Shown: one piece after another, positions 1,965 to 34,210 of the stretch | Position numbering within the stretch: the stretch's first letter is position 1 | How the letters are laid out: each line of letters opens with the position of its first letter | Source of the DNA: Candidatus Spyradenecus sp. | GTDB taxonomy: Bacteria > Verrucomicrobiota > Kiritimatiellia > RFP12 > DVOR01 | Reading direction: 5' to 3' | Assembly: GCA_045634445.1 (NCBI GenBank) | Contig: JAZRAG010000075.1 | Location: 7,782-71,781, forward strand | Length of the DNA stretch: 64,000 nucleotides | Program-made: the position numbers and the translations under genes | Notes under the pieces: model-generated | Databases searched by the model: none | Seen by the model: only the letters and a program-made list of their open reading frames with translations | Told to the model about the DNA's origin: nothing

Positions 1965-1992
1965 TAAAATGTGCAGTTGAAAGGAACGAAGA

Positions 1993-4476: not shown

Positions 4477-4487
4477 CTGGGTGCGCT

Positions 4488-4931
4488 ATGAGTTTTAAGC
4501 CAATGGTTTTGCGAGTAGAACGCTTGACTGCAACCGCGCAATTGCCTGCGTATGCGCATCCAGGCGATGCTGGAATGGATCTCTGCGCAGATGAAGCGCG
4601 CATCCTTCAACCTGGTGAGCGCGCGGCGGTTTCAACAGGGATTCGTATCGCGTTGCCGCAGGGTACAGAAGGGCAAGTGCGTCCGCGCAGTGGGCTCTCG
4701 ATTAAGCATGGCATTACGGTGATTAACGCGCCTGGTACGATTGATGAAGGTTATCGTGGCGAGGTGAAGGTGCTCTTGGTCAATCTAGGTCAAGAAGCCT
4801 TTGAAATCACCCCTGGGATGCGCATTGCGCAATTGGTCGTGGCGCCCGTTTTACGCGTGCCTGTGATGGAGGATGTCGTTGATGACACCACTGCACGCGG
4901 CACAGGTGGCTTTGGCTCAACAGGAATCTGA
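4488..4931 (+). CDS. dut: dUTP diphosphatase
   Basis: 147 aa; dUTPase motifs AGMDL, RSGLS, GTIDEGYRGE. Confidence 0.93.
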   Translation: MSFKPMVLRVERLTATAQLPAYAHPGDAGMDLCADEARILQPGERAAVSTGIRIALPQGTEGQVRPRSGLSIKHGITVINAPGTIDEGYRGEVKVLLVNLGQEAFEITPGMRIAQLVVAPVLRVPVMEDVVDDTTARGTGGFGSTGI

Positions 4932-4941
4932 GGCATTTTGT

Positions 4942-6228
4942 ATGATACATGAAGCTCTTTATCAACGCGCTTGCTCGGTCATTCCTGGGGGTGTGAATTC
5001 GCCTGTTCGCGCATTTAACGCGGTGAGCGGCACGCCGATTTTCGTGAAGTCGGGTAAAGGTGCTGAAATTACACTTGCTGATGGGCGCACATTGATTGAC
5101 TGTTGCTGTTCATGGGGCGCGATGATTTTAGGGCATGCGTCCCCATTGGTGACAGAGGCCGTAACGAAGGCCGCCGCTTCTGGTACGACCTTTGGCATTG
5201 GCACGCCTGGCGAAGTGGATCTCGCCGAACGTCTTGTGGCGGCAAGTCCGCTCTTGGAAAAGGTGCGTTTGGTCAATTCTGGCACCGAGGCGGTAATGAC
5301 GGCGGTGCGTTTGGCGCGCGGTGTAACGGGGCGTGATTTGATTTTGAAGTGCGAAGGGTGTTATCACGGACACAGTGATAGCTTACTCGTGAGCGCAGGA
5401 AGTGGCGTTTTAACGGCTGGTGATGGTACAGAAGTCGCAAGTGCCGGCGTACCTGAAGTGATTGCACGCGATACGCTTGTGATTCCGTACAATGATGTCG
5501 CGGCCGCAGAACGCGCTTTTGCGACGTTTGGTGCGCGCATTGCCGCTGTGATTGTGGAGCCTGTCGCTGGAAATATGGGCTGTGTGCCGCCAGTGGAGGG
5601 GTATTTAAAGGCGCTTGAAACCTTGGCTCACCGCGCGGGAGCGCTCTTGATTTGTGATGAAGTGATCAACGCTTTCCGTTTCCATTATGGCCTTTACAGT
5701 GACTTAGCGGGTATTCAGCCTGATATTATCACGATGGGTAAGGTGATTGGTGGCGGTTTCCCCTTGGCTGCGATTGGTGCGCGTGCAGAGATTATGGATG
5801 CGCTTGCGCCGCGCGGCAAGGTCTACCAAGCGGGCACGCTTTCGGGTAATCCGGTGGCTGTGGCGGCTGCAATTGCGGTGTTGGACGAGTTGAAGGCGCA
5901 TTCTCCGTATGAAGCAATGGCCGCGAAGGTGACGCGTATTACGGACGCATTTAACGTTGCTGCCGACCATCATGGCGTGCCGATGCGTGTCCAACGTTAT
6001 GCCACGGTCTTTACACCCTTTGCGACAACGGTGCTTCCTGTACGTAATCTCGCTGATGCGCAGGCTGCAGACACCGCGCTGTATGCGCGATTCTTCCATG
6101 CGATGTTAGATCGCGGTGTTTACGTAGAACCTTCTGCGTTTGAAGTCAATTTCGTTTCTGCGGCGCACACAGAGGCGCATGTGGATGCGATTTGCGCAGC
6201 GATGGATGACGCTTTACGCGCGTTATAA
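4942..6228 (+). CDS. hemL: glutamate-1-semialdehyde 2,1-aminomutase
   Basis: Class III aminotransferase, HemL-like throughout (GGVNSPVRAF, PLP-lysine region MGKVIGGG); start moved from 4873 to ATG 4942 just after the dut stop. Confidence 0.92.
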   Translation: MIHEALYQRACSVIPGGVNSPVRAFNAVSGTPIFVKSGKGAEITLADGRTLIDCCCSWGAMILGHASPLVTEAVTKAAASGTTFGIGTPGEVDLAERLVAASPLLEKVRLVNSGTEAVMTAVRLARGVTGRDLILKCEGCYHGHSDSLLVSAGSGVLTAGDGTEVASAGVPEVIARDTLVIPYNDVAAAERAFATFGARIAAVIVEPVAGNMGCVPPVEGYLKALETLAHRAGALLICDEVINAFRFHYGLYSDLAGIQPDIITMGKVIGGGFPLAAIGARAEIMDALAPRGKVYQAGTLSGNPVAVAAAIAVLDELKAHSPYEAMAAKVTRITDAFNVAADHHGVPMRVQRYATVFTPFATTVLPVRNLADAQAADTALYARFFHAMLDRGVYVEPSAFEVNFVSAAHTEAHVDAICAAMDDALRAL

Positions 6229-9193: not shown

Positions 9194-9760
9194 ATGCGTA
9201 CAACATTCCTCTTAACTCTACTTCTCGCAGTAGCATTTGTGTTCACGGGTTGCGCTCGTAAGTCTCGCAACGCAGCTGGCGGTGCTGACGACTTTGACAG
9301 CGCTGCAACGTTCGCTGGCGACGGTGCATTCATCGACCCCAACGGCGCAAACTTTGACCCCAATGATCCGAATGCAGGCGCTTTCGACACTGGTAAGTTT
9401 GAAGACACCCGCACTCGCGTGACAGATGCAGGCTTGGAAGCGCTCTACTTCTCCTTCGACTCTTACATGCTTCCTCCGGAAGAACTCGCTAAGGCAGAAG
9501 CTGCAGCTCAGTATCTCTTGAACAACCCCTCTCACGTGATGATCCTCGAAGGTCACTGCGACGAACGTGGTTCCAACGAATACAATCTCTCCCTCTCCGA
9601 ACAGCGTGCAATCGGCGTGCGTGACTACATGACCTCCTTGGGCATCGATGGCGCTCGCATTCAGACCCGTGCATTCGGTGAAGATAAGCCTGCTGTTCCT
9701 GGCACGGACGAATCTGCGCACAGCTTGAATCGTCGCGCGGAATTCGTTCCTTACAAGTAA
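9194..9760 (+). CDS. pal: peptidoglycan-associated lipoprotein (OmpA family)
   Basis: Lipobox VFTGC; C-terminal OmpA-like domain (EGHCDERGSNEYNLSLSEQRA...NRRAEFV). Confidence 0.85.
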   Translation: MRTTFLLTLLLAVAFVFTGCARKSRNAAGGADDFDSAATFAGDGAFIDPNGANFDPNDPNAGAFDTGKFEDTRTRVTDAGLEALYFSFDSYMLPPEELAKAEAAAQYLLNNPSHVMILEGHCDERGSNEYNLSLSEQRAIGVRDYMTSLGIDGARIQTRAFGEDKPAVPGTDESAHSLNRRAEFVPYK

Positions 9761-9864
9761 TTCCTTCGCGGACGTTCCGCTGACTAGCACCGCGCAGCCG
9801 TTTCCGACTGTAATAGGTCGTTGACGACGCGTGGTGCTCTCATCTTCTTAAGACGCTTAAAGCT

Positions 9865-10206
9865 ATGTTCTCCTTCCCGGAAATCCTCGTCATCCTTATT
9901 GTGGCGGTCATCGTATTGGGACCCAAACGATTGCCCGAAACAGCGCGCAAAATCGGGCGCTGGGTTGGCGTATTCAAACAGGCTGGAGACGAATTTAAGC
10001 GTCAACTGATGACGATGGATCGCATGGTAGATGATTCGCTCAATCGTGCGACATCAGATTTAGACCAATTAGAGCCAGAAGCGGTGAAAAGTTATGAAGA
10101 CGTGGTAGCTGATATTGCTGACACCTTCAATGCGCCCTTCACCGCTGCGCCAAGTGCCTCATCCCCTTCTGCGGAAACACCCGTTCAGGAGGGCGATAAA
10201 GCATGA
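9865..10206 (+). CDS. tatA: twin-arginine translocase subunit TatA/TatB family
   Basis: N-terminal TM helix + amphipathic helix (FSFPEILVILIVAVIVLGPKRLPE); acidic C-tail. Confidence 0.8.
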   Translation: MFSFPEILVILIVAVIVLGPKRLPETARKIGRWVGVFKQAGDEFKRQLMTMDRMVDDSLNRATSDLDQLEPEAVKSYEDVVADIADTFNAPFTAAPSASSPSAETPVQEGDKA

Positions 10207-11042
10207 GTGCGCCAAAAGCTCGCTTCCAATCGCGCATGGCACAAGGCTTTACGCGCTTTTTTACCTCCACAGAGGAAGATCGCGTACGTGATGAAGCGAT
10301 GGATCCCCCGCGCCCCTTCATTGAGCATTTCATTGACTTGCGCAACTGTGTCATCGCCTGCGTGATTGCGTGGGTGGTAGCAATGCTTCTTGTGGCGCCC
10401 TTTTCACCGTGGATTATTGAACTCTTGCAAGCACCCGTTGTGGAATCTGGTTTGCAAGAGCAAGGGGTCACGGTGGAAGGTCTTGAAATTGGCGTAGGCT
10501 TCTCCCTCTTTATGACCACGATGCTTTGGGGTGGCACCATTGTCTCCCTGCCAGCATTGCTCTACTTCATCTTCCGCTTCGTCTTCCCAGGATTGCGTCG
10601 ACACGAACGCAATATTGTATTGGCGACGCTGATTAGTGGGGTGGCGCTCTTCATCGGTGGCGTTTGGCTCTGCTTTAGCTTTGCCCTGCGGTTGGCTCTT
10701 GAAGCGCTCATGGCCATTAACCAATGGATGAATGTGCCTGTCACCATTTTACAAGCAGAAGCCTACATCGGCTTTGTGCTGAAAATCTTGCTTGCCTTTG
10801 GCCTTGCCTTCCAATTCCCCTTAGTGCTCTTAGTGCTCGGATGGCTTGGCATCATTAGCGCAAAAGCGCTCTCTTCGCGTCGCGGTATCGCGATTGTCTT
10901 GATTTTTACGATGGCGATGTTCTTAACACCGCCAGACCCTTTATCGCAGATTATCATGGCTGTGCCGATGTGCCTGCTCTATGAAATCACCATCATTTTA
11001 GTACGATTGCGCGAGAAAATCAGCGCAACAACAATGGAGTAA
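10203..11042 (+). CDS. tatC: twin-arginine translocase subunit TatC
   Basis: 6-TM TatC profile (FIEHFIDLRNCVIACVIAWVVAML...); 4-bp overlap with tatA. Confidence 0.9.
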   Translation: MSAPKARFQSRMAQGFTRFFTSTEEDRVRDEAMDPPRPFIEHFIDLRNCVIACVIAWVVAMLLVAPFSPWIIELLQAPVVESGLQEQGVTVEGLEIGVGFSLFMTTMLWGGTIVSLPALLYFIFRFVFPGLRRHERNIVLATLISGVALFIGGVWLCFSFALRLALEALMAINQWMNVPVTILQAEAYIGFVLKILLAFGLAFQFPLVLLVLGWLGIISAKALSSRRGIAIVLIFTMAMFLTPPDPLSQIIMAVPMCLLYEITIILVRLREKISATTME

Positions 11043-11047
11043 TTACT

Positions 11048-12238
11048 ATGGGCTTTGAGTCTGGGTCAATGACCTTTCGCGCATTTTACCTCTCTCGCGC
11101 ATTTACCCCCGCTGACATGGAGCGCTTTGCAACGCGTCCCTTGCCTCCCATCAATACATTGACGGGCGATCAGCCGTTACATGGTTGGGCAGGTCCGTCT
11201 CACGCATTGGATACTGAACTCACCGAAGAACACTGCTGGCGCGCAGATTGGCTGTGGTTCGCACACGTAACGGCTCAGAAGAAGGTGCCGCCAAGCTTGA
11301 TGCGTGCGATGTTGATGGCTGAACTTGAAGTAGAACGCAAGGCCCGTGGTGTGGAAATTTTGCCACGTGCAGCTAAGATTGAAGTGAAAGAACGCGTTGC
11401 CGAAGATTTGATTCGCGATGCGCAGCCCTCCTTTGGTTCGATGGAGTGCGCGATTGACTTGCGTAATGACCGCTTACTTGCGAGCGCAATGAATGACGCG
11501 TCGATGCAGGTGCTCTGCCCCTTCTTCCGCGAAACCACGGGTTGCATGCCTGTGGCCTGCGGTCCTGAAAGCGCGGCTTATCGTCTCTGTGGCCTTGATG
11601 CCAATAGCGTGGAATTGATGAATCTCACACCGAATGAAGCCATTGGCATCCCGCCAGAAGTGACGCTCGGTACGGAATTCTTGACTTGGCTCTTCTACCG
11701 TTGGGAAAAGGAAGACGCCACCTTCAAGATGGGCGATGATCGTTGTCAGTTGATGTTTGAAGGCCCCTTGATGTTTACGGGCGATAAGGCGCCAGGTTGC
11801 CACGAAACGGTCTTGCGTAATGGCACACCTTTGGATACGCCTGAATTCGGCATTGCGCTTTGGAATGGTAAGAAACTCCGCCGTGCGAAGTTGACCTTAA
11901 CCCGTAATGACTGGATTATCACCGCCACGGTGGATGGTTACGACTTCTCTTTCCGTTCGCTCAAGTGTGATCCGCCGAAGAAGTCTAAGGATGCTGACGC
12001 TGTTTCGGAAATGCCGTCAATGAACGCCCCTGGCGCTGCACCTGCACCCGAGGTAGAGGATGGCAAGCGCAAGTTGAGTGCAGACGAACGTCTTGATCGT
12101 GCTGCCTTCTATGTGGATGCCTTCTTGCATCTCTACAAGGAGTTCTTGAAGTTGCGCGAAGATGGCGTGGCATGGCGTGGAGAACTTGCTAAGATTCGTC
12201 CGTGGATTGCAACTCGTTCGGGTCAGGTAGAGGCCTAA
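11048..12238 (+). CDS. hypothetical protein, possibly RdgC-like recombination-associated protein
   Basis: Pattern similarity to RdgC N-terminus (F..YRLSR..., MAFTP-like) and C-terminus (KRLKF-like LRRAKLTL); weak, by eye only. Confidence 0.4.
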   Translation: MGFESGSMTFRAFYLSRAFTPADMERFATRPLPPINTLTGDQPLHGWAGPSHALDTELTEEHCWRADWLWFAHVTAQKKVPPSLMRAMLMAELEVERKARGVEILPRAAKIEVKERVAEDLIRDAQPSFGSMECAIDLRNDRLLASAMNDASMQVLCPFFRETTGCMPVACGPESAAYRLCGLDANSVELMNLTPNEAIGIPPEVTLGTEFLTWLFYRWEKEDATFKMGDDRCQLMFEGPLMFTGDKAPGCHETVLRNGTPLDTPEFGIALWNGKKLRRAKLTLTRNDWIITATVDGYDFSFRSLKCDPPKKSKDADAVSEMPSMNAPGAAPAPEVEDGKRKLSADERLDRAAFYVDAFLHLYKEFLKLREDGVAWRGELAKIRPWIATRSGQVEA

Positions 12239-22046: not shown

Positions 22047-23876
22047 TTATAGGACGAGGTTGGCGTCGGAGGGTAGCATCCATCCACCACGTGGTGAGAG
22101 CGCAATGCCACCGACAGCAGGTCCATCAGGACTGCAAGAACGCTTGAACTGCTGCGTAATTACGCGACGGCAGAAGATGTCAAGCGTGCGGGTGCGTTCG
22201 GCTTCGGGAATCTCACCATGTAAAAGCGTAGCCAAATCGGCGAGTTGCTCTCTATTACACCCATAACGCATAAAGTACCACAAGAAGCAGTCGTGCAATT
22301 CATAGCGGCCAACGATTGACTCAGTATGTTGCACCCCAGGGACCAATTCAGGCGAAACAGGCGTCTCGCAGATATCCTTCAATACCGCGGTAAGCGTTTC
22401 GGCTGCAACATGATCTGCAGAGGCTAAACGCTCCGTTGCCGCTTCAAGACAGGCGGGAATCAATGTCTTTGTGATGGCGCAGTTCACGGAGTACATGCTC
22501 ATGTGGTCACCATTGTAGGTACTCCACCCGAGTGCAATCTCTGAAAGGTCGCCTGTGCCCACAAGTAACCCGCCCTCTTTATTGGCGATGTCCATGAGCA
22601 ACCACGTACGTGCGCGAGCTTGAGCATTCTCGTAAGTGACATCGTGCGTCTGCGGATCTTGGCCGATATCAGTGAAGTGTTGGGTCACACAGGGCACAAT
22701 TGAAATCTCGCGCAGTTCAGCTCCCAATGTCTTTGCCAATGTACACGCGTTGTTGTACGTGCGATCTGTTGTACCGAAGCCTGGCATTGTCACTGCGATT
22801 ACCGTCTCTGCCGGCAACCCATACTGACGGCAAAGCAACGCGCACACAATCAAGGCAAGCGTTGAGTCTAAGCCGCCTGAGAGCCCCAGAACCAAACGTT
22901 TCGCGCGGATTTGCTGGAAACGGCGTGCCAACGCATGCACCTGCATCTCAAGCAATTCGTGGCAACGTTCCATGCGCGCTGCTGGCGTTTCTGGCAAGAA
23001 GGGGTTCGCGCGTAATTTCGCCTGCGAACCATCACATGCTGTCGCAGGGAGCGTCGCCGTAATGAGGCGCTCAGGTGTCGGTGCTGTGAGATTCGCACGG
23101 AGGCGATGGGCATCAATCCATGCCGGCGAGAAGTCCATCAATGACACCCCTGTCTCCCAACGTGCTTCAGCGCAGAGACGTCCTTCATTGGCTAAGAGAC
23201 GGTGACCGCTGTAAACGCCATCAGTAGAGGATTCACCCATGCCTGCATTGGTGTACACACACGCGCCGCCTGTTGTGCGAGAAAGAAGCGTAAGCGCTTC
23301 ACGACGGAATTGCGGTTTGCCTGCGCCTTCAGGTGAAGCATCCAAGCAGAGGAGGAGATGCGCATCCAAAGTAGACGTAGCGTCCAACGGCAAGCCAAAG
23401 GTTACGGCAAGACGCGCATCTGCGATTGCAAAACGAAGATCCGTGCCAAAAGGTGTGCCATCAGGTAGTGCAACGCATGTTGCAGATGCGGCAGGTGAGA
23501 AACAACGGAAGCGCGGGTCTTGCTTGGGGAGTGTCGCACGCGGCACCACGCCTAAAATGGCGTTGTCTTGAATAACCACCGCGCAGTCGTAGAGCTGGCC
23601 CTCAATGAACAATGGTGCACCGCACACGAAAAGTAATGCCGGTGGCAAGCTTTCACAAAGGTCCATTAATGCGACCTGTGTCTGCTCCTGAAGCGTCCGT
23701 GAGAGGAAGAGGTCGCCACATGTAGCGCCTGTAAGTGATAATGCTGGTGCCACCGCAATGGAAGCCCCTGCCGCAACAGCCTTCTCTGCAGCCGCGAGCA
23801 AAGCAGAAACATTCGCCTGAGGATTCGCAAGCGTAATATCAGGCGTCAATGCCGCCACACGAATAAAACCAGTCAT
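22047..23876 (-). CDS. nadE: glutamine-dependent NAD+ synthetase (nitrilase domain + NadE domain)
   Basis: N-terminal CN-hydrolase domain, C-terminal PP-loop LVLGLSGGLDSTL. Confidence 0.9.
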   Translation of the reverse strand: MTGFIRVAALTPDITLANPQANVSALLAAAEKAVAAGASIAVAPALSLTGATCGDLFLSRTLQEQTQVALMDLCESLPPALLFVCGAPLFIEGQLYDCAVVIQDNAILGVVPRATLPKQDPRFRCFSPAASATCVALPDGTPFGTDLRFAIADARLAVTFGLPLDATSTLDAHLLLCLDASPEGAGKPQFRREALTLLSRTTGGACVYTNAGMGESSTDGVYSGHRLLANEGRLCAEARWETGVSLMDFSPAWIDAHRLRANLTAPTPERLITATLPATACDGSQAKLRANPFLPETPAARMERCHELLEMQVHALARRFQQIRAKRLVLGLSGGLDSTLALIVCALLCRQYGLPAETVIAVTMPGFGTTDRTYNNACTLAKTLGAELREISIVPCVTQHFTDIGQDPQTHDVTYENAQARARTWLLMDIANKEGGLLVGTGDLSEIALGWSTYNGDHMSMYSVNCAITKTLIPACLEAATERLASADHVAAETLTAVLKDICETPVSPELVPGVQHTESIVGRYELHDCFLWYFMRYGCNREQLADLATLLHGEIPEAERTRTLDIFCRRVITQQFKRSCSPDGPAVGGIALSPRGGWMLPSDANLVL

Positions 23877-23998
23877 GAGTCATCCCCTTCATCAAAATCG
23901 CCTACATTATAACACACCCGCGCGTATTCTGCGCGCGTTTGGGTGATAGTGGCAATGCAGTCAATAGGGCCGATGAACGCCAATCGCTGCGGAGCCGC

Positions 23999-26557
23999 TC
24001 ACTCTTCCTGTATTGTGCAAGGAGCGGTGACAGAATAGGTCTTGCCATTGGCCTGCACGCTTACGGTAGTGGGTTGATTTGCCTCAAGTGACCACATGAC
24101 GACGCGTCCTTCGCGCCATTGCAGTGAGACGCGAATCCCATCGTGTGCACGCACACCATGGAGGGAGCCGCCCTTTGCCCATGCAGTAGGGAGCGCTGGC
24201 AATAATTCAATCATTCCCGAGCGCGACTGCACAATCTGCTCCAACATCGCGGCGGCGATGCCATAATTGCCATCTATTTGCAAGGGGATGCGGTGCGAGG
24301 CAAAGCCGTTGTCTAAGACATTGTGTTGCAACAGTCCTTGTATCATAGCATGGGATTCCTCTCCTCGATGGAGGCGTGCCCAGAGTGCCGCTCGCCACGC
24401 CCAAGCCCACGAACGGCGACTGTCGCCTGTGGTTTTGCGTAATCTCAAACTGCGTTCGGCGGCAGTAGCGAGTGTAGGCGTTGTGCTCGGTGAGAGGAGT
24501 GTGCCAGGATAGAGTGCAAAGAGATGTGACGTGTGACGATGGTCGGTCTCAGGGTTGCGGTCAATGAGCCACTCCATGAGATTGCCCCGCTGTCCAATCT
24601 GAGGCGGCACTAATCGCGCCGCGGCTTCGCTAATCTCGGTAAGGAGGGGTGAGGTATGCCCCGATTGATGTGCTCCGGTGAGGGTCGCTTGAAAGAGTTC
24701 GGTGACGATTTGCTGATCATGGGCGACGCCATCTTCTTCGCGCGGTCCGTGTTCGGGTGACCATCCTTTAGGGACGACCAAGGCGCCCGCAGGCAGGGCG
24801 GCGAGTTCTGGATACGCACGCGGATCGACCGCATGACCATTGGAGCAAAACCCCTCGCCGCCAGGGCCGAGCGCCTTGAGCCGTTGAAGCCAGAAGGCAG
24901 AGAGTTCGGTCAAGAGCGGAAGCGCTTCATCCCAACGGGTGGGAGAGGGTGCTGCAAAGGCGGCATGGTCGCGGAAGTGTAAGGCGTACCAGGCTGAAGC
25001 GGGCAGATTCATCTGCCAACCGCCCGCGCCAAAGGGGTTGTGCGATGTATAGACAAGCCATCCAGAGGAGGTGGGGACCTTTTCGCCACGGGCAATGAAG
25101 TACTCGGTAGTGGCGCGTTGGAAACAAGGACGCATGGCTAAGAGGTAGTCAAGGAGGGCGCGATGACATTCGGGTAGGGCGCCTCGTTCGGCAAGCCAAT
25201 AGACCATCTGCGCGTTGATGTTGCTGTGGTAGTCATTTCCCCAAGGTGCTTCGGGATAGGGATTCCAAATACCTTGAAGACCTGCGGGAAGGCCACCAGG
25301 ACGTGAGGTCGCAATGAGAAGATAACGCCCAAAGGCGAGGAAGAGCGCTTCCAAGGCGGGGTCTCCCTCGGGATGGTCGCGATAAGCGGCCAATCGCTGT
25401 GGGGTCGGGAGATCGCGTTCGGGCGCATCAAGCCGTAGCGCAAGGCGACGATAGAGGGCGCGCGTATCTGCGCGATGACGTTCGCGTAAAGCTTCAAAGG
25501 TGAAATCCGCAAGCGCAGAAAAGCGAGCGGCACAACGTTCGGCTGCAGGTGTACCTCGAAAGCCAAGCGCAGGACTCATCTCGTAATTGGTCTCCACTGC
25601 GGTGAGCAACGTCCATTGCCGCACATCCTTGAGAATGAGCGCTTCTGGGGTTACCTCCACCTGCGCAGCATCGCAATGAACCAAACGACTTTGTGAACGG
25701 CATTGGAGGCCATTGGCAAGGGTCGCATCAAGGATGAGTTCGGAGGGCGACAGGGTGAGTGTGTCACTGGGACGATTCCGTGCGAGGGTAATCGCAACGC
25801 GTGCCAACGGTGCATCAGCGGTGTAACGTAGCGCGATGACGCGGTCAGGATAGGAGCAGAAGGCCTCGGAGTGAATCGTTATCCCATTGCGTATGGCAAT
25901 AGCACGCACCGCAGCAGTGTCAAAATCAAGTTCGCGTCGAAAGCCTTCCTTGTGTACGGGCGCGCCGAAGTCAATCAGTAAATCCGCTACGGGTTGTTGG
26001 CCGCCAAATCCCGAGGCTGAATCAGGCCCATGCGAACCATTGTAGGGCTTATCGCCGAGCGCATCAATGCCAGGATTTGCGCCACCAGACCAGAAAGCGG
26101 CCGAGGAAAGCGTGTAGCGGTCACGTCCCGAACCATGAAAGACCGAAACACCCGTAAACCCATTGCCCAATGGATAAGGTTCACCCTCCCACAAGCGTGC
26201 AGGATTGGTGTAACGTCCTTCGGTTAGCGCGTACGTGCGCTCACAAAGGATGTCTACCCCCTCGCCCATGGCACGATGCTTAGGGTAGGAGGGTGGAGGC
26301 GTAGGACGTACTGGCGCTGGCGCACCGATTCGAACGCCCTCAAAAGCCTCTGAAGTTACCGCTGGCACAAGTTGATGTGGGAAGAGTACCGTATAGGCGG
26401 GGCAATCAGACCAAAAACCCTCAAAAGCGCTGCCAGCGACCAACCGCGCTAACGGTGCAATCACCCCTAAAAGAAGAAAGAATCGTCGCCCATTCATACG
26501 CCTCACATTATAACATATGGGCGTGCCTACCGACGCTGTCAAGCGTTTAGATGTCAA
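23999..26557 (-). CDS. secreted glycoside hydrolase, GH95-like (putative alpha-L-fucosidase)
   Basis: Signal peptide after internal Met (MNGRRFFLLLGVIAPLA); GH95-type motif GNDYHSNINAQMVYW; ~830 aa mature size typical of GH95. Confidence 0.65.
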   Translation of the reverse strand: MTSKRLTASVGTPICYNVRRMNGRRFFLLLGVIAPLARLVAGSAFEGFWSDCPAYTVLFPHQLVPAVTSEAFEGVRIGAPAPVRPTPPPSYPKHRAMGEGVDILCERTYALTEGRYTNPARLWEGEPYPLGNGFTGVSVFHGSGRDRYTLSSAAFWSGGANPGIDALGDKPYNGSHGPDSASGFGGQQPVADLLIDFGAPVHKEGFRRELDFDTAAVRAIAIRNGITIHSEAFCSYPDRVIALRYTADAPLARVAITLARNRPSDTLTLSPSELILDATLANGLQCRSQSRLVHCDAAQVEVTPEALILKDVRQWTLLTAVETNYEMSPALGFRGTPAAERCAARFSALADFTFEALRERHRADTRALYRRLALRLDAPERDLPTPQRLAAYRDHPEGDPALEALFLAFGRYLLIATSRPGGLPAGLQGIWNPYPEAPWGNDYHSNINAQMVYWLAERGALPECHRALLDYLLAMRPCFQRATTEYFIARGEKVPTSSGWLVYTSHNPFGAGGWQMNLPASAWYALHFRDHAAFAAPSPTRWDEALPLLTELSAFWLQRLKALGPGGEGFCSNGHAVDPRAYPELAALPAGALVVPKGWSPEHGPREEDGVAHDQQIVTELFQATLTGAHQSGHTSPLLTEISEAAARLVPPQIGQRGNLMEWLIDRNPETDHRHTSHLFALYPGTLLSPSTTPTLATAAERSLRLRKTTGDSRRSWAWAWRAALWARLHRGEESHAMIQGLLQHNVLDNGFASHRIPLQIDGNYGIAAAMLEQIVQSRSGMIELLPALPTAWAKGGSLHGVRAHDGIRVSLQWREGRVVMWSLEANQPTTVSVQANGKTYSVTAPCTIQEE

Positions 26558-26673
26558 TTGCGCAGTGATGAAATAAAATGCGTGCGGAGTGGGAAGGGCG
26601 TGAAGTAAAATAAGGATGTCCTCGCGGAGGTGTTGAGGATTGGTGTATGTTTAACAACAAAAGGAATGAACAG

Positions 26674-27042
26674 ATGAAGAAGATTTTGCTTTTAGCAATG
26701 ATGGCGATGATGTTCGGCCTTGTAGGGTGCGGTTCATCTGAGACGCCAGAGTCTACGGTGACACAGTGGGTAGATGCAGTGCTTGCAGCGGATTATGAGG
26801 CTGCAAATGCGTTGTGTGATGGCTTTGGAATGTCGCTCGCAACGAATGTCACGATTAATCAAACTAAAGACGGAAGCCCTCGCAAGGAAGAGGTGCGTGC
26901 CTTTTTGACAGGATTAAAGGATTTGCGTTCTAAGGTTGAGGGTGACACTGCGAAGGTCTATTGTCCCGCTCGACCTGACAAGCCTATTTTTGAACTTAAA
27001 AAGGTCGATGGTAAGTGGAAGATCGTTGGCGAGGGTATCTAA
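26674..27042 (+). CDS. small lipoprotein, function unknown
   Basis: MKKILLLAMMAMMFGLVGC lipobox; AAGGA RBS before ATG 26674; followed by hairpin terminator. Confidence 0.55.
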   Translation: MKKILLLAMMAMMFGLVGCGSSETPESTVTQWVDAVLAADYEAANALCDGFGMSLATNVTINQTKDGSPRKEEVRAFLTGLKDLRSKVEGDTAKVYCPARPDKPIFELKKVDGKWKIVGEGI

Positions 27043-27067
27043 GCTAAAGGTTTGTTTTAAATTGTTG

Positions 27068-27113
27068 AAGGCGTCCTTGGGTAGTTCCTAAGGATGCCTT
27101 ATTTATATTTTTT
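27068..27113 (+). terminator. intrinsic terminator (11-bp stem aaggcgtcctt/aaggatgcctt + T-run)
   Basis: Inverted repeat with one G-U position followed by atttatatttttt. Confidence 0.6.
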
Positions 27114-27129
27114 AGTTCTTCAATACTTT

Positions 27130-27405
27130 GTACTCTATTTTTCCGGCCGTAACTTATTCATTTTTAATAACTTATTTTGAATATTTTATGGCCGGCAATT
27201 TTAAGCTTAAAATCAGTACAATTTGTACTATTCATGCAAAATTTAAACAGTACAATTTTTTGGGGGCAAGATATTTTAAGGGAAAATTTCCGCTCGGGAA
27301 GAAATCTTAAATAGTACAATTTTTTGCACGGGACTTTTTAGACCTGTCTAGAAAACTTTAGAAAATAGTACGAAGGACCGAAGAAGTGAAACAATAGGGT
27401 TGTGC
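27130..27405. repeat. non-coding direct repeat copy A (~275 bp; contains AGTACAATTTGTACT palindrome 27215-27229 and a 67-bp internal duplication)
   Basis: Aligns base-for-base with 29118-29327 (e.g. GTAACTTATTCATTT, TTTTATGGC, AAAATCAGTACAAT, TATTCATGCAAAATTTAAACAGTACAATTTT, CTGTCTAGAAAACTTT); the two overlapping ORFs are in different frames. Confidence 0.85.
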
Positions 27406-27423
27406 TATCATCATCGGCGTTTT

Positions 27424-27499
27424 CGGTCTCTAACTCAGTTGGTAGAGCACGACACTTTTAATGTTGGGGTCGCGGGTTCGTTCCCCGCGAGACCGGCCA
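27424..27499 (+). tRNA. tRNA-Lys (anticodon TTT)
   Basis: Cloverleaf: acceptor CGGTCTC/GAGACCG, D arm ACTCAGTTGGTAGAGC, anticodon loop CTTTTAA, T arm GCGGGTTCGTTCCCCGC, encoded CCA. Confidence 0.92.
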
Positions 27500-27506
27500 T
27501 CTTAAA

Positions 27507-27536
27507 CCTCTCAAACGCACGTTTGAGAGGTTTTTT
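27507..27536 (+). terminator. intrinsic terminator after tRNA-Lys (cctctcaaac/gtttgagagg + TTTTTT)
   Basis: Perfect 10-bp stem, 4-nt loop, 6 T. Confidence 0.8.
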
Positions 27537-27544
27537 GTTGCCCT

Positions 27545-27580
27545 AAAATAAAAAAATCACCAGCATTTGCTGGTGATTTT
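27545..27580. terminator. bidirectional hairpin atcaccagc/gctggtgat flanked by A-run and T-run
   Basis: 9-bp perfect stem; serves minus-strand gene 27635-28054. Confidence 0.65.
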
Positions 27581-27634
27581 CAATACATTAAATTTGACTA
27601 AAATAATGTATATGGTAAACTAGACGTTATCCCG

Positions 27635-28054
27635 TTAATCGGGAATCGCTGCATAGATTAGTAAAAATAGAAGGCCTAGAACGAAGCCAATTGAGCCTGT
27701 GATAATCCCAGACATCCCCTTTCCGCTTTTAACTTCAGCACATCCACATCCAATGCCTCCTGCGGAAAGAATCATTCCAAACCATGCAGTCCACGATAAC
27801 ACTAAGCCAAGAATACCAAGAACAAGTGCCAAAGTAGCTAAAATACTCGAGTTTTGGCTTCCTTCAAACTCTTGTCGAGGTACAACTAGGGGTGTTGTAT
27901 TGCCCGCTCCAAAAGTATTATAAATCTGAATTGGAGCATTTTGTTGTGAACGAGCTCGATGAAGCTCATTACCACACGCCATACAGAATTTATTCCCAGT
28001 TGATTGCTGCTTTCCACAGTGAGCGCAAAACATTTGTTCGTCAGTCATATCCAC
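27635..28054 (-). CDS. zinc-ribbon membrane protein (DUF4190-like: N-terminal CxxCG...CxxCG ribbon + two Gly-rich TM helices)
   Basis: FCAHCGKQQSTGNKFCMACG then TM hairpin ILATLALVLGILGLVLS / GIITGSIGFVLGLLFLLIY; lower GC than surroundings. Confidence 0.6.
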   Translation of the reverse strand: MDMTDEQMFCAHCGKQQSTGNKFCMACGNELHRARSQQNAPIQIYNTFGAGNTTPLVVPRQEFEGSQNSSILATLALVLGILGLVLSWTAWFGMILSAGGIGCGCAEVKSGKGMSGIITGSIGFVLGLLFLLIYAAIPD

Positions 28055-28729
28055 TTAATCTCTCCATTTAGCGTTAAATTCTTCATGCGACATCTGCCCA
28101 GAGGCGGCATCCACCGCATCTGTGACAACTGCTTGAATAATTATCCCCCAAAGAGCAATGGAAATCACCCACAAGAGGAACGATGTTACGGCAGGACCAT
28201 AATTTTTATTTGTGAGTTTTGCTCGTCTAAACAAATACCAATAAGGGAAAAGACACGACCGAATTCCGATTTCAGCCACTTCTTTTCTATACCCTGCCTT
28301 TTCTAATACTGCTTCATCTTTAAGCGTCAAAATGATTAATACAATTCCCGCACAAATGAAAGCTGCACCCCTCGACGAACTGATGATGCCCACCACATAC
28401 CAAACTATAATCGGCACAATCGCCAGTAACCATGCCCACTTATCCGTTAAGGGAAGCCGCTCTTTCGACTGTTGCGAGGTAGAACTTTTGAAGGCTTCGT
28501 TTTTAACTTTTACGCGCTTGCCAGACGGCAGCGTCACAATTTTATAGGGAGATTCCTGCGAAACACTTTCTTTTTGCAGTGTTTTAGTCTCAGCCACAAG
28601 CGACTCGGTTGTTGAATTATCCAAATGTGTCGGCACGCTCGGTTCAACTAACGACTCATGACTTTTTCCACATTTTGGGCAAAATCGAACTTGAGCTTGA
28701 AGTTCATTTCCACAGTTTGTACAAAACAT
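28055..28729 (-). CDS. zinc-ribbon membrane protein, unknown function
   Basis: MFCTNCGNEL...FCPKCG ribbon, then 3-4 TM helices; abuts the preceding gene with no gap. Confidence 0.55.
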   Translation of the reverse strand: MFCTNCGNELQAQVRFCPKCGKSHESLVEPSVPTHLDNSTTESLVAETKTLQKESVSQESPYKIVTLPSGKRVKVKNEAFKSSTSQQSKERLPLTDKWAWLLAIVPIIVWYVVGIISSSRGAAFICAGIVLIILTLKDEAVLEKAGYRKEVAEIGIRSCLFPYWYLFRRAKLTNKNYGPAVTSFLLWVISIALWGIIIQAVVTDAVDAASGQMSHEEFNAKWRD

Positions 28730-29117
28730 ACCATTTCCTTTCTTTTACTAGCAGTTTTCTTACTAAGCGAAAGGAACTCGTTTTATTTTACTGAGATAAA
28801 ATAAAGCGTGTTCTTCGCCCAATCATCTTCAGTAGAGGCCTACCACAGCCCGAGTGACGACAAGTGAACAGAGAACACGCTAGGAAATGAATCCTAACGC
28901 GCCTCCGCATTACAACTCGTTCACTCAGAGAAAAGTGGTAGTTTCTACTGAACAAATTGTTATGCGTTAACGCATCTTTTAGTACGTCTGAGAGGTGGCA
29001 AGAGGACGCATCACGTCATCGCCCCAATCAAACTATGTGATGGTAGTATAGACCTTTTTAGGATTTAATTCAATAAGAAATTATTGCCCATCACAAAGTA
29101 TTAATTCTTCATTATTC

Positions 29118-29327
29118 CGTACTATATTTGCCGAGTCGTAACTTATTCATTTACAATAACTTATCTTGAATATTTTATGGCAGGTAATTTTAGGCTTAAA
29201 ATCAGTACAATCAGTACTATTCATGCAAAATTTAAACAGTACAATTTTAGGCGGGGACTTTTTGGCCCTGTCTAGAAAACTTTGGAAAATAGTACGGAGG
29301 GCTGAAGAAATGAAACAAATGGGTTTG
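29118..29327. repeat. non-coding direct repeat copy B (~210 bp; AGTACAATCAGTACT palindrome 29203-29217)
   Basis: See copy A; same orientation, ~1.7 kb downstream, no tRNA after it. Confidence 0.85.
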
Positions 29328-29394
29328 CAAATGATTGACGGATTGGGGGCTATAAAGCGTTAAAAACAATGTGAAAAGAGATTACTTTTAAGGG

Positions 29395-29462
29395 GTTTTT
29401 GAAAACAAGCCTTTTTGCCTTTCAAAACAACCCTTTTTGATCTTGAAAAGAGGTTGTTTTGG
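29395..29462. repeat. copy of dispersed intergenic palindromic repeat family
   Basis: GAAAACAAGCCTTTTTG...CAAAACAACCCTTTTTGATCTTGAAAAGAGGTTGTTTTG imperfect palindrome. Confidence 0.7.
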
Positions 29463-29568
29463 GAGTCAATTTCAGCCTTTTCTAAAAACCGCTTAAAATC
29501 AAGCATTTAATGGCGCAGCGTTGAATGGATGCGCTCATGGTTGATGATGGGTGTAAAAGAGGGTTATG

Positions 29569-30489
29569 TTATGCGTCAAAGAGCCAGGTGGAGAGGTAGC
29601 GGTCGCCGCCGTCGGGGATGATGACGATGATGCGTTTGCCGGCGTAGGCTTCGTTGCGGGAGAGGTCGCGGGCTACTGAGAGGGCGGCGCCTGCTGAGAT
29701 GCCGACGAGTAAGCCATCGGTCTTGGCGATGGTACGCGCAGCTTCGCCAGCGGCTTCTGCGCTAACGGCGATGGCGCGTGTAATAAGGGCGGTGTCTAAG
29801 TTCTTGGGAATGAAGCCTGCGCCGATGCCTTGGAGTTTATGGGGGCCAGGGGTGCCACCACTGATAACGGGGGAGGTGTCTGGCTCTACAGCGATAACTT
29901 CGAGATTGGGATTCTTGGACTTAAGCACAGTCGCAATGCCCGAAAGGGTGCCACCAGTGCCAACGCCTGCGACTAAGACATCGACTTGGCCATCGGTGTC
30001 GCGCAGGAGCTCGTAGGCAGTCTGTTCGCGGTGGGCGGCGGGATTGGCTGGGTTTTCAAATTGTTGGGGAATCCAACTGCCTGGGTTGGCCGCTTGTAGG
30101 GCTTGGGCTTCTGCGATGGCGCCTGTCATGCCGCGTTCGCCTGGGGTGAGGACGAGTTCTGCACCATAGGCGGCAAGGAGCTTGCGGCGTTCGGCGCTCA
30201 TGGTTTCGGGCATGGTGAGGATGAGGCGATAGCCTTTAACGGCGGCGGCAAGGGCGAGGCCGATGCCTGTATTACCGCTAGTGGGTTCAATGATGAGGCC
30301 GCCAGGCGCGAGGAGTCCATCGCGTTCGGCGGCTTCAATCATGGCGAGGGCAACGCGGTCTTTGATGCTGCCACCGGGATTAAAGTATTCGACCTTGGCG
30401 AGGAGTTCTGCGTGGCCATCGTTGAATCGATTGAGGCGCACGAGAGGGGTGTTGCGGGCGGTCTCAAGGATGGTGTTGTAGATGGGCAT
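29569..30489 (-). CDS. cysK: cysteine synthase A (O-acetylserine sulfhydrylase)
   Basis: PLP-lysine region GGSIKDR, TSGNTG motif, GTGGT loop. Confidence 0.92.
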   Translation of the reverse strand: MPIYNTILETARNTPLVRLNRFNDGHAELLAKVEYFNPGGSIKDRVALAMIEAAERDGLLAPGGLIIEPTSGNTGIGLALAAAVKGYRLILTMPETMSAERRKLLAAYGAELVLTPGERGMTGAIAEAQALQAANPGSWIPQQFENPANPAAHREQTAYELLRDTDGQVDVLVAGVGTGGTLSGIATVLKSKNPNLEVIAVEPDTSPVISGGTPGPHKLQGIGAGFIPKNLDTALITRAIAVSAEAAGEAARTIAKTDGLLVGISAGAALSVARDLSRNEAYAGKRIIVIIPDGGDRYLSTWLFDA

Positions 30490-31683: not shown

Positions 31684-31821
31684 ATGAAGATGACTTGGCA
31701 ACCTTCTAAGATTAAGCGCGTTCGCAAGATTGGTTTCCGCGCTCGCATGGCTACTAAGGGCGGTCGCAAGATCTTGGCTCGCCGCCGTGCTAAAGGCCGC
31801 AAGGCATTGGTTCACGCTTAA
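31684..31821 (+). CDS. rpmH: 50S ribosomal protein L34 (45 aa; below the ORF-track size cut-off)
   Basis: [45 protein letters not shown] matches L34 (MKRTFQPS..K...GFRARM.T..GR.VL.RRR.KGR..L). Confidence 0.92.
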
Positions 31822-31844
31822 GTGAATCGCTCGGGGGGCACGCT

Positions 31845-32264
31845 GTGACCGATACCCCTGTGTGCGGCGTTGTTTCCAAAGGAGGCTCCTACCAGGCGCC
31901 TCCTTTGCTTTTGTCGCCTTTTAGACTCCCTGAAGACGTGTTTTCGGCGTTGTTTGAAAAGGGGAAGTCTGAGGCGAATCGCTCATTGGTGCTGCGTTAT
32001 GTGCCCAATGGGTTGGAGAAGACGCGCATAGGGGTGATTACGACGAAGCGGACGTTCCGTAGGGCGGTGGATCGCACGCGTGCCCGTAGGCTGATGCGTG
32101 AGGCGTTTCGATTGGAGCGTACGCAGTTGGCCGTGGGGTACGATTTGGTTTTGATTGGGCGGCAGGCTTTGACAACGCTGCGATGCCAAGAGGTGCGAAG
32201 CGACCTTTTAAAGTTGTGTCGCCGTGCGAAGTTGCTGGCGAATCAAGGTCGCAGTGGACAGTGA
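31845..32264 (+). CDS. rnpA: ribonuclease P protein component
   Basis: RnpA core [15 protein letters not shown]...[30 protein letters not shown]; true start may be a downstream non-ATG codon. Confidence 0.85.
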
Positions 32265-32271
32265 GGCTATA

Positions 32272-32547
32272 ATGGCGCGTGCACGATGGCAACAATGGCT
32301 TGCGAATGGGTTGATTGCCTGCGTGCGGTTCTACCAGCAGACGTTGCATAGCTTCTTTGGGTATGGCAGCTGCCGTTTTACACCGACGTGTTCGCAGTAT
32401 ATGATTGAAGCGGTGCAGGTGTATGGGCCCTTTAAAGGGTTGGGCTTAGGGCTCTGGCGCATTTTACGATGTAACCCGTTTTGTCGGGGTGGGTACGACC
32501 CAGTACCATTGCCTCGACAGGACAGAAACGAGATGAATGATGAATAA
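32272..32547 (+). CDS. yidD: membrane protein insertion efficiency factor YidD
   Basis: [16 protein letters not shown]...[20 protein letters not shown] signature; ATG 32272. Confidence 0.85.
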
Positions 32548-34210
32548 GAATGACAAGATTTGGGTGGTCGTATTGGTGGCCGCACTCTTGGGTTATTTTG
32601 CATGGAGTTGGCTCTCTCCGAAGCCAGCACAGCCTGCTCAGCCAGCGCCTGTAGTGGCGCCAGTAGCGCAGACTACCGCACCTGCGGTGACGCCGAGTGC
32701 GCCTGCGCCTGTAGTGGCTCCAACGCTTCAACCTGCGCAGCAGCAGTTCTACACGCTCAAGAATGACGAGGTGGTCTTGACCTTCTCTGATTTGGGCGCT
32801 CGTTTGACGAAGGCTGAACTCTTACAGTATCGCAAGGAAAACACCGAAGACTCCGCGCATGTGGTCTTGGAAACGGGTGATTTGATGAATCTCTCGTTTG
32901 AGGGCGCTGCGCAGTATTTGAAGTATCAGGTGGCAACGCCTGATGCGCAGACGTTGGTTTTCTCTACGGTGTTGCCGACAGGGGTGACCTTGGAACGTAC
33001 GGTGACGTTGGGCGATAACTACGTGGTAGGCGTGCGCGATGCCTTCCGTGCGGCTCAGAATGCAGCGATCGCTCCTTATCAGTTCAGTGCGGGTGCGTTT
33101 CATTTGACTGACAAGCAAGGCGATACGATTGGTTTTGATACGCTCGCTGCTGGTGAAGATGATCCCGAATACCATGAAGGGGATTTGGCAAAGCTCTTGG
33201 GTGCACGTAGCGCATTCTTGGGTTGCGGTACGAGTTCTGATCCGACTGGCTTGCCTTTGACGGGCAGTGCTTCTTTGGCTACTGCACAGACGTGGGTAGC
33301 ATTGAAGAGCCGCTTCTTTGCAACGTTGGTGATGCCTCCAGTGGCGGCGCCGTGCACGTATGGCGTGTCGCGTGATCCTGCGGCTAAGACGTTGCAGATT
33401 ACAGGCGTGAATGCCGCCTTTACCTATCCTGCGATGCAGCTCACGGGCGGAGTTTCTTCTGGCGTGGTGACGCGTTTGTACGTGGGCCCTAAGTTGTTGA
33501 GCAATCTCAAGGCTTTTGGTAACAATGCAGACGACGTGATGGACTTCGGGATGTTCTCGTGGTTCTGCGCATTACTCTTGCCGATTTTGAACTTCTTCTA
33601 CAACTTAATCCCGAACTACGGCGTGGCGATTGTGCTGTTGACCCTGCTCGTGCGTGTGGTCTTCTGGCCGTTGACGCACAAGAGCACGGTTTCGATGCGT
33701 AAGATGAGTGTGGTGCAGCCTCAGATTAAGGCCTTGCAGGCACAGTTTAAGGATAATCCGCAGAAGTTGCAACAGGAAACGCTTAAGCTCTATCGCGAGC
33801 ACAAGGTGAATCCTTTCTCGAGTTGCTTGCCGATGTTGGTGCAGATTCCGATCTTCATTGCGCTTTTCACGGTGTTGCGCTCTGCAGTGGAATTGCGTTT
33901 CGCCGACTTCCTCTGGATTGCCGACCTTTCGCAGCCTGAAAACCTCTTTGCAGGTATCTTGCCGATGCCGCTCAATATCTTGCCGATTTTGACGGCCGTT
34001 ACGATGGGTTTGCAGACGCACCTTTCGCCCGCTTCGGGTGACCCTGCGCAGAAGAAGATGATGACGTGGATGATGCCGATTATGTTGCTCTTCATGTTCT
34101 ACTCGATGCCGTCTGCGCTCTGCTTGTATTGGACGATTTCGCAGGTCCTTTCGATTGCACAGATGTGGTACATCCACAAGACTACGGCCACAACGCCGAC
34201 TAACGCTTAA
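32537..34210 (+). CDS. yidC: membrane protein insertase YidC
   Basis: N-terminal TM, large periplasmic domain, 5-TM C-terminal core ([20 protein letters not shown]...MQPQIKALQ). Confidence 0.9.

Follow-up and report, generated by a model that had tools for sequence, protein, structure and literature searches.

A tRNA-Lys islet in Candidatus Spyradenecus is probably a composite mobile unit bounded by miniature inverted-repeat elements

An AT-rich islet between two direct repeats

We analyzed a 64,000-nt stretch of Candidatus Spyradenecus sp. (assembly GCA_045634445.1, contig JAZRAG010000075.1, positions 7,782–71,781; hereafter, the window), in which a tRNA-Lys gene, two genes for zinc-ribbon membrane proteins and a structured leader lie between two direct repeats, copies A and B. 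Across positions 26950–29650, GC content is 0.30–0.44, compared to 0.56–0.63 in the flanks. Both copies belong to a repeat family that was named EL in this analysis (EL-A and EL-B, respectively), and the genome or metagenome stretches used for comparison are labeled L001, L044, etc.

Copies A and B are about 85% identical overall. A repeat search returned two matching blocks (27112–27266 / 29101–29255 at 86%; 27321–27401 / 29245–29325 at 84%), and the pairwise MAFFT alignment contains a single 65-nt gap, located in copy B. By aligning more than 45 family members, the limits were refined to 27110–27391 (A) and 29099–29315 (B), and within each copy the two ends proved to be inverted repeats of one another. 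The palindrome AGTAC-N5-GTACT has two exact matches in the 64 kb (0.02 expected), one per copy, and no third copy of the repeat was found in the window. The features of the locus are as follows.

27068–27100, plus strand: terminator hairpin of the upstream lipoprotein gene, i.e., the left native flank; present in L047 and L122
27110–29315, plus strand: proposed EL-bounded composite unit of 2206 bp (EL-A, tRNA-Lys, two genes, leader, EL-B); absent at this locus in L047/L122, relocated in L044/L120
27110–27391, plus strand: EL-A, long canonical form, 282 bp (family alignment; 87–92% identity to copies in Kiritimatiellae genomes assembled from metagenomes)
27110–27139, plus strand: 5′ terminal inverted repeat of EL-A, TTTTAGTTCTTCAATACTTTGTACTCTATT, at the sharp 5′ family boundary; pairs with 27362–27391
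27215–27229, no strand: palindrome AGTACAATTTGTACT in EL-A; half-sites conserved and spacer variable among copies
27238–27338, plus strand: two imperfect internal direct units (27238–27274 and 27302–27338), 70% identical; about 65 nt of this region are missing from the short form
27362–27391, plus strand: 3′ terminal inverted repeat of EL-A, AAAATAGTACGAAGGACCGAAGAAGTGAAA, at the sharp 3′ family boundary
27424–27499, plus strand: tRNA-Lys (anticodon UUU), cargo (ARAGORN; Rfam 54.8 bits); accompanies the unit in L044
27504–27581, both strands: back-to-back hairpins resembling intrinsic terminators (plus 27504–27533, minus 27581–27552; terminator scan)
27635–28054, minus strand: 139-aa zinc-ribbon membrane protein, cargo (Pfam Zn_Ribbon_1, E = 1.2e-6)
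28055–28729, minus strand: 224-aa zinc-ribbon membrane protein, cargo (Pfam Zn_Ribbon_1, E = 4.5e-7)
28730–29098, minus strand: structured 369-nt leader or non-coding RNA before the zinc-ribbon genes, cargo (fold z = -7.8)
29099–29315, plus strand: EL-B, short form, 217 bp; homology with L001 breaks exactly at 29099
29316–29568, no strand: native AT-rich spacer containing short palindromic units, located between the unit and cysK (fold z = -3.5); present in the empty-site alleles L047/L122

A preliminary description of this DNA had already recognized two homologous, non-coding repeats in the same orientation. The repeat search, the MAFFT alignment and the absence of codon-phase bias bear this out, and the identity lies above the 70% under which that description would have given up the idea of true repeats; its limits (27130–27405 and 29118–29327) were replaced by those given above. 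It had also correctly placed copy A just upstream of tRNA-Lys (the tRNA starts 32 bp after A), seen no tRNA behind copy B (none was found there by ARAGORN or the Rfam scan), noted the palindrome in both copies, and located the two low-GC minus-strand zinc-ribbon genes and the structured leader between them. Its view that the islet has no integrase and is not a classical tRNA-inserted island agrees with our data: no integrase was found in the six open reading frames (ORFs) that flank the islet or among the best-scoring Pfam families of 43 further window ORFs, and the repeats share nothing with tRNA-Lys. The 67-bp internal duplication that it assigned to copy A did not hold. Copy A is canonical and B, a deletion variant, lacks one internal unit, so A did not gain a duplication.

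EL elements are dispersed among gut Kiritimatiellae

A 21-mer common to A and B had exact matches in 38 stretches of a species-representative genome collection, all of them from Kiritimatiellae metagenome-assembled genomes (MAGs), including two Candidatus Spyradenecus species, several ruminant ‘RGIG’ MAGs, and UMGS1657. BLAST with copy B identified 55 EL copies in these 38 loci; two Candidatus Spyradenecus MAGs (JAZUPT.. and JAZLBT..) contain at least 21–23 copies each, and further copies come from other gut Kiritimatiellae. Many copies sit at contig ends, as would be expected of repeats that disrupt assembly. When metagenomes were scanned with a degenerate motif of the EL ends, 17 out of 72 loci contained ELs (nearly all of these come from a single assembly, JAEIGA01...), and the remaining 55 were coding DNA that matched by chance. 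No EL was found in the viral contigs searched, nor any transposase with EL ends there.

Most EL copies are of uniform length: 40 out of about 47 complete copies measure 273–284 bp (most 281–284 bp), and a minority 216–217 bp. Further short forms like EL-B occur at L007 3050–3266, L007 5727–5942, and L029 7087–7302. Mean identity among 40 complete copies is 91%, and copies align end to end with sharp 5′ and 3′ boundaries, beyond which the flanking DNA is unrelated. The element starts with TTTCAYTTCTTC, or the variant TATTAATTCTTC, and finishes with GAAGAARTGAAA. Its ends form imperfect terminal inverted repeats of about 30 bp, of which the outer 12 bp are nearly perfect, with the layout 5′ TTTCAYTTCTTC-N8-GTACT ... 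AGTAC-N8-GAAGAARTGAAA 3′.

EL is AT-rich and non-coding, and contains five or six AGTAC motifs per copy: each inverted end has one, the central palindrome has two, and the rest of the interior adds one or two. EL-A has six (GTAC at 27130, 27216, 27225, 27250, 27314, and 27368), i.e., six per 282 bp compared to one per 464 bp in the window (about 10-fold), where GTAC occurs at 0.56 of expectation. Across copies, the half-sites of the central palindrome are conserved and its spacer is variable. These motifs may be protein-binding sites, possibly an operator as the preliminary description had proposed; given that GTAC motifs are present in both inverted ends, they are no less likely to be bound by a transposase or recombinase.

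A frame of about 50 codons is open in many copies and was considered as a hidden small ORF. This candidate was rejected, since variability at the three codon positions (0.048, 0.075, and 0.069) shows no third-position excess, from which we conclude that EL is not coding. In addition, the open frames differ from one copy to another.

EL thus has the hallmarks of MITEs (miniature inverted-repeat transposable elements), i.e., small non-coding copies with inverted, sharp ends that are dispersed and show insertion polymorphism. In our interpretation, EL is probably a MITE-like, non-autonomous mobile repeat family that was not described before; a literature search found no description of repeat elements in Kiritimatiellae.

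Two further families of non-coding repeats have EL-like ends and different interiors. One was found at L036 1761–2000 and L037 580–800, and the other at L007 1913–2088 and 2823–3000 and at L021 6328–6503. Their ends read TTTTTCAATATTTCCGTACT... and TATCATTTTTTCAGATGATTGTACT..., and both families often directly adjoin ELs. The similarity of the ends and this adjacency suggest a superfamily that may be served by one transposase. At L098 9213–9242, a solo 3′-type EL end (TTTCACTTCTTCAGAGCTTCGTACTATTTTCT) gives way to unrelated GC-rich DNA, which continues until the contig stops; this end would belong to a truncated EL or, alternatively, to a longer relative.

The islet is present, absent, or relocated in related assemblies

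Loci were reached via members of the 90%-identity clusters of window proteins (CysK, the lipoprotein, and the 139-aa protein), which led to the L044- and L047-type loci. Two JGI samples (L047 and L122) contain the locus without the islet. They match the window at 97.7–98% over 22500–27113 and from 29316 onwards, and lack exactly the segment that opens with EL-A and closes with EL-B (27114–29315). The empty site is occupied by a 44-bp filler composed of two palindromic units of about 22 nt (L047 4606–4649; L122 1881–1924). The spacer at 29316–29568 lies outside the mobile unit.

The same unit was found elsewhere in L044, where positions 9349–11617 match window positions 27110–29315 at 97.6% and include EL, tRNA-Lys, the two zinc-ribbon genes, the leader, and EL. 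There it is located between tRNA-Cys/LysM and DUF212/LepA genes and is framed by a 7-bp duplication (TTAATAG). A second ENA sample (L120) has the same unit in the same context, with the contig ending before the EL junctions. In L001, the cargo (99.6% identity) is joined to a Sel1-repeat gene with no EL, and the homology breaks exactly at 29099. Relatives with 86–89% CysK identity (L040–L043) have no EL, tRNA, or zinc-ribbon genes beside cysK, in a region where synteny is already broken, and a metagenome scan with the 3′ half of tRNA-Lys gave no matches.

Variation at EL pairs was also observed with other cargo. L007 and L029 have flanks that are 98–99.6% identical, and in both, beside tRNA-Gln, a short EL and a long EL bracket cargo that is unrelated between the two MAGs. 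In L036 and L037, ELs are located at different positions and in opposite orientations beside a shared flank. Two ELs in direct orientation can move the intervening DNA as one unit, and window positions 27110–29315 are probably such a composite mobile unit. In L007 there is, in addition, a three-EL block of 4.3 kb (1625–5942, compared to L029 4633–7302), flanked by the duplication CTTAATA.

Target duplications flank some single elements and some whole units

Exact direct repeats at offset 0 were found around 6 out of 45 single copies, compared to 1.55 on average with shuffled pairing (L025, AATCTTTA; L010, L017, and L035, CAATAGG; L006, GGATGA; L030, TAGTAC). Where two or three ELs of the same orientation share a locus, the 5′ flank of the first EL matches the 3′ flank of the last. 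Four EL-cargo-EL units have duplications at their outer ends: L004 (CAAGCAC), L007 (CTTAATA), L028 (CAATACGG), and L044 (TTAATAG). The outer position of these duplications suggests that whole EL-cargo-EL blocks insert as units. A fixed-k test at offset 0 had looked negative, and the signal emerged only once neighboring ELs were treated as pairs and every exact match was tabulated. In L019, an 8-bp repeat (CTATCTAG) is located on the inner rather than the outer sides of the ELs, which would fit a circle with one EL that fused to another EL.

Read toward the EL, both flanks have the consensus AAAtyCwwTGr. ELs frequently sit within tandem arrays of 22–24-nt palindromic units (e.g., GTCAAATCCATTGGATTTCAAA and ATTTTCAAYATGTTAAAA), the center of which varies by locus. 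Such arrays were found at L047 4606–4649, L122 1881–1924, window positions 29390–29470, and in the flanks in L015, L021, L022, and L033. The frequent location of ELs inside these arrays suggests a targeting preference for the palindromic units, which could be insertion targets, excision remnants, or sequences of the repetitive extragenic palindromic (REP) kind.

Cargo of this and other EL units

The 369-nt leader that precedes the zinc-ribbon genes is strongly structured. Its minimum free energy is -131.7 kcal/mol, compared to -88.4 ± 5.5 kcal/mol for shuffled sequences (opposite strand, z = -6.5), and the sense strand is more stable than the antisense strand by 25 kcal/mol. The leader had no match in Rfam, even at lax thresholds. 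It accompanies the cargo at 98–99.6% identity in L001 and L044 and lies inside 98.4%-identical matches to the window in L045 and L046. Judging from its predicted fold, it may be an undescribed cis-regulatory RNA or non-coding RNA. The 90%-identity cluster of the 224-aa protein is encoded in L001 (identical), L044, L045, L046, L120, and L121.

Elsewhere, the cargo of EL units consists of accessory genes. The EL-bounded unit at L004 1969–6356 (duplication CAAGCAC) carries a complete-looking restriction-modification cluster with an N6/N4 methylase, two IceA/NlaIII-like proteins, and a C5 cytosine methylase with a helix-turn-helix domain. Other units encode Sel1 proteins, a Nudix hydrolase, a HEAT-repeat protein, or a radical-SAM/SPASM enzyme together with a methyltransferase. 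An 852-aa ORF in L028 was considered as a relative of the GH95 gene in the window and rejected, because the two proteins are of equal length but unrelated.

We also considered the unit as a self-contained module, in which a possibly single-copy and essential tRNA-Lys(UUU) would secure the retention of the leader and zinc-ribbon cargo, with EL moved by an unrecognized transposase or recombinase that reads AGTAC. If this were true, the unit would relocate (window locus, L044 locus, L001 context) yet never be lost. We regard this extension as unlikely.

The window copy may have arrived by recombination between ELs

Comparison with L044 revealed that both ELs in the window are mosaic. EL-A is 83% identical to the first EL of L044 over its 5′ 98 nt and 99.5% identical over its 3′ 184 nt. 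The cargo (spacer, tRNA, genes, and leader) is 98–100% identical, and EL-B matches L044 at 95.5% over its 5′ 112 nt and at about 79% over the remainder, which also has a 66-nt deletion. As read from these steps in identity, the mosaic ELs show that recombination between ELs occurs.

We propose that a DDE-type transposase encoded elsewhere recognizes the EL ends, and possibly the repeated AGTAC sites, and would make staggered 7–8-bp cuts at the target. The window copy would have arrived otherwise than by direct transposition. Recombination between the two ELs of an L044-like unit would give a circle with the cargo and one hybrid EL, composed of the 5′ part of the second EL and the 3′ part of the first. 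This circle would then have recombined with a resident short-form EL between the lipoprotein gene and cysK in a single reciprocal exchange, which would account for both the missing duplication and the mosaic ELs. The expected circular junction consists of the 5′ flank of EL-B (...CCCATCACAAAG), one EL, and then CAATAGGGTTG. By analogy to IS26 translocatable units, the exchange could be a transposase-mediated conservative reaction or, alternatively, ordinary homologous recombination.

Weighing the explanations

Taken together, the explanation that we consider probable is that EL is a MITE-like family, the islet an EL-bounded composite unit, and its entry into this locus the result of recombination between ELs. 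Several observations weigh against it. No transposase or autonomous element with EL ends was found among 65 ORFs next to ELs, where the neighbors are ordinary housekeeping genes; the top-ranking Pfam families of 43 window ORFs (25 out of 70 were listed) included no transposase or integrase, and there was no transposase or autonomous element at the metagenome loci that match the EL end motif. A recognizable duplication is lacking at 39 out of 45 single copies and at the window unit, and where duplications exist their length is not uniform (6–8 bp). The 44-bp filler of the empty site is absent from the window, indicating a replacement rather than a clean insertion. In L033, L024, and the outer flanks of L019, the flanks are inverted complements of each other, which simple transposition does not predict; targeting of palindromic units may explain this in L033 and L024. 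The internal core of EL appears more conserved than the ends, a pattern that is partly due to ascertainment, with the search seed located in columns 126–146. Lastly, the window is probably a MAG contig, and an assembly that took a wrong path through a solo resident EL would produce the same mosaic. The family-level conclusions stand without the placement in the window; L044, L120, L047, and L122 are independent assemblies.

Two rival explanations also treat EL as a DNA element. EL could be a site-specific recombination site (similar to attC, Xer/dif modules, or shufflons), with a tyrosine or serine recombinase acting on AGTAC-N5-GTACT to swap cassettes. Synteny that breaks precisely at EL ends, the different cargo of L007 and L029 between one EL pair, the conserved half-sites and variable spacer of the palindrome, the missing target duplication in the window, and the inner repeat of L019 (which fits a circular intermediate) are all consistent with this idea. 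Exact 7–8-bp duplications around single ELs and whole units are, however, not a site-specific product, and the insertion sites are many and unrelated. Moreover, the EL ends are unlike attC cores or 11-6-11 dif sites, and the scans of ORFs beside ELs and of the best-scoring families in window ORFs revealed no recombinase or integrase near any copy, leaving this explanation unlikely. Less likely still is that EL is a host repeat, akin to REP or enterobacterial repetitive intergenic consensus (ERIC) sequences, that binds a nucleoid or regulatory protein and spreads by homologous recombination and gene conversion only. This would fit the highly conserved core, the clustering of copies in intergenic regions rich in short palindromic units, the mosaic ELs (which show EL-by-EL recombination), and the lack of duplications at most copies. 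Homologous recombination cannot, however, make 7–8-bp duplications of unrelated targets (L025, L004, L007, and L044), one unit was found at unrelated loci, and inverted ends with sharp boundaries are typical of transposase substrates.

The remaining alternatives, which the preliminary description had offered as options, concern RNA and tRNA, and both are very improbable. EL-A folds better than shuffled sequences (z = -5.1), and several one-sided C/U changes keep G-U pairs on the EL plus strand, as would be expected of small-RNA genes or structured cis-regulatory RNAs. The fold signal, however, stems from the terminal inverted repeats and DNA palindromes: RNAalifold on 40 copies gave a covariation term of -0.73 kcal/mol with 1 out of 41 pairs compensatory, and EL, including the element searched alone, had no Rfam match at gathering or lax thresholds. 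Nor did promoter and terminator scans place any site at the ends of EL-A (totals were unremarkable or unrelated to ELs); EL-B contains one weak promoter-like match (9/12), and the orientation of ELs relative to neighboring genes is mixed. A pair of small-RNA genes, as had been suggested, is thus not supported. Apparent covariation seen by eye between a hypervariable 5′ block (columns 32–40) and both a 3′ block and columns 81–87 was inconsistent and was discarded. The other suggestion was that copy A is a tRNA promoter-leader and B its duplicate or the remnant of a second tRNA-Lys locus. EL-A does end 32 bp before tRNA-Lys, and the sole promoter seen in that gap, read by eye, is a TGnTATCAT-like extended -10 at 27403–27411. 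The usual -35 position falls inside the EL end, hence EL-A may contribute promoter elements to tRNA-Lys, though EL is not generally a tRNA module. Among the 55 copies, four lie within 100 bp upstream of a same-strand tRNA (Lys, Gln at two orthologous sites, and Arg), and eight have a tRNA within about 350 bp (L004, L007, L009, L018, L029, L030, L038, and the window). The latter proportion exceeds the share of intergenic regions with tRNAs, and ELs may therefore prefer tRNA-proximal sites. Against the promoter-leader idea, 51 out of 55 copies precede no tRNA, the tRNAs differ, separate promoter-like sequences lie between EL and tRNA in L007, L029, and L009, and there is no tRNA fragment behind copy B. 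EL is therefore not a module found upstream of every tRNA, yet it is generic in the other sense of being a dispersed family. EL-A is not the dedicated promoter of tRNA-Lys; the adjacency is incidental and the tRNA is cargo.

Comparison with known mobile systems

The closest parallels are composites bounded by MITEs (bacterial MITEs are reviewed in PMC10969869). In Acinetobacter, a pair of 439-bp MITEs flanks class 1 integrons or blaPER-1 (PMC3934969), and TIME-COMPs are composites bounded by Tn3-derived miniature elements (PMC4133298, PMC13367494). As in the EL unit, two small non-coding copies with inverted ends bracket unrelated cargo with no internal transposase, the unit is found at different sites, and a target duplication surrounds the whole unit (for EL, in L004, L007, L028, and L044, and not in the window). 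The EL unit differs in its Kiritimatiellota host, its unrelated ends, its duplication length (7–8 bp compared to 5 bp), and its cargo: instead of resistance genes, EL units contain a tRNA with genes for membrane proteins, or a restriction-modification system.

Pseudo-compound transposons and translocatable units of IS26 and the IS6 family (PMC7986276, PMC7885326) provide a second comparison. They share with the EL unit the direct orientation, a duplication of about 8 bp, and apparent entry at a resident copy without a new duplication, and the inner duplication of L019 is what IS26-type cointegrate formation from a circle would leave. In contrast to IS26, EL has no transposase gene, and the 14-bp ends of IS26 (GGCACTGTTGCAAA) differ from those of EL, which start with TTTCAYTTCTTC. 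The window mosaic is explained equally well by homologous recombination as by an IS26-like reaction.

Correia elements (NEMIS) of Neisseria are high-copy intergenic elements with inverted ends that exist in a long and an internally deleted short form; they are often located beside genes and are able to affect gene expression. EL likewise has coexisting long and short forms. It differs in being roughly double the length, in lacking a TA duplication, in having neither a known IHF site nor known RNase III processing, and in the multiple AGTAC motifs of its core. Integron attC sites and Vibrio cholerae repeats resemble EL as imperfect palindromic repeats that separate low-GC cassettes of strain-variable content, whereas EL loci lack IntI, attC cores, and a long one-directional array, and target duplications are present at some of them. 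With tRNA-targeting islands, the EL unit shares a low-GC segment, direct repeats, and an adjacent tRNA; it differs in having no integrase, repeats without the tRNA 3′ end, and the tRNA inside the unit as cargo. EL and the islet therefore lack the defining features of IS26 itself, integron cassettes, tRNA-integrating islands, and structured RNA families. The type of mechanism is familiar; what is new is the EL family and its composite units in an understudied phylum, with unusual cargo.

Significance and genomic context

Intergenic regions of gut Kiritimatiellae, an uncultured lineage that has received little study, are shaped by the EL family, whose copies also disrupt MAG assemblies. As composite units, ELs shuttle accessory genes, among them those for restriction-modification and for repeat proteins, and even one for a tRNA; the mobile tRNA-Lys(UUU) and the structured leader inside one unit are the standout features. 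For annotation, EL blocks of about 283 bp should be masked as mobile repeats rather than called as promoters or small RNAs, and EL-bounded islets should be regarded as strain-variable.

An rpmH-rnpA-yidD-yidC cluster (31684–34210) is located at a distance of 2 kb from the islet, and the window also contains gyrA at another position. Genes of this set are often found near the chromosomal origin, which places the islet in a core housekeeping neighborhood. Across the 64-kb window, there is strong avoidance of CCGG and CTAG, which reach 0.18 and 0.10 of expectation, respectively; GATC, TCGA, and GTAC occur at about 0.5 of expectation. The avoidance of CCGG hints at a restriction system of the HpaII/MspI type in this lineage.

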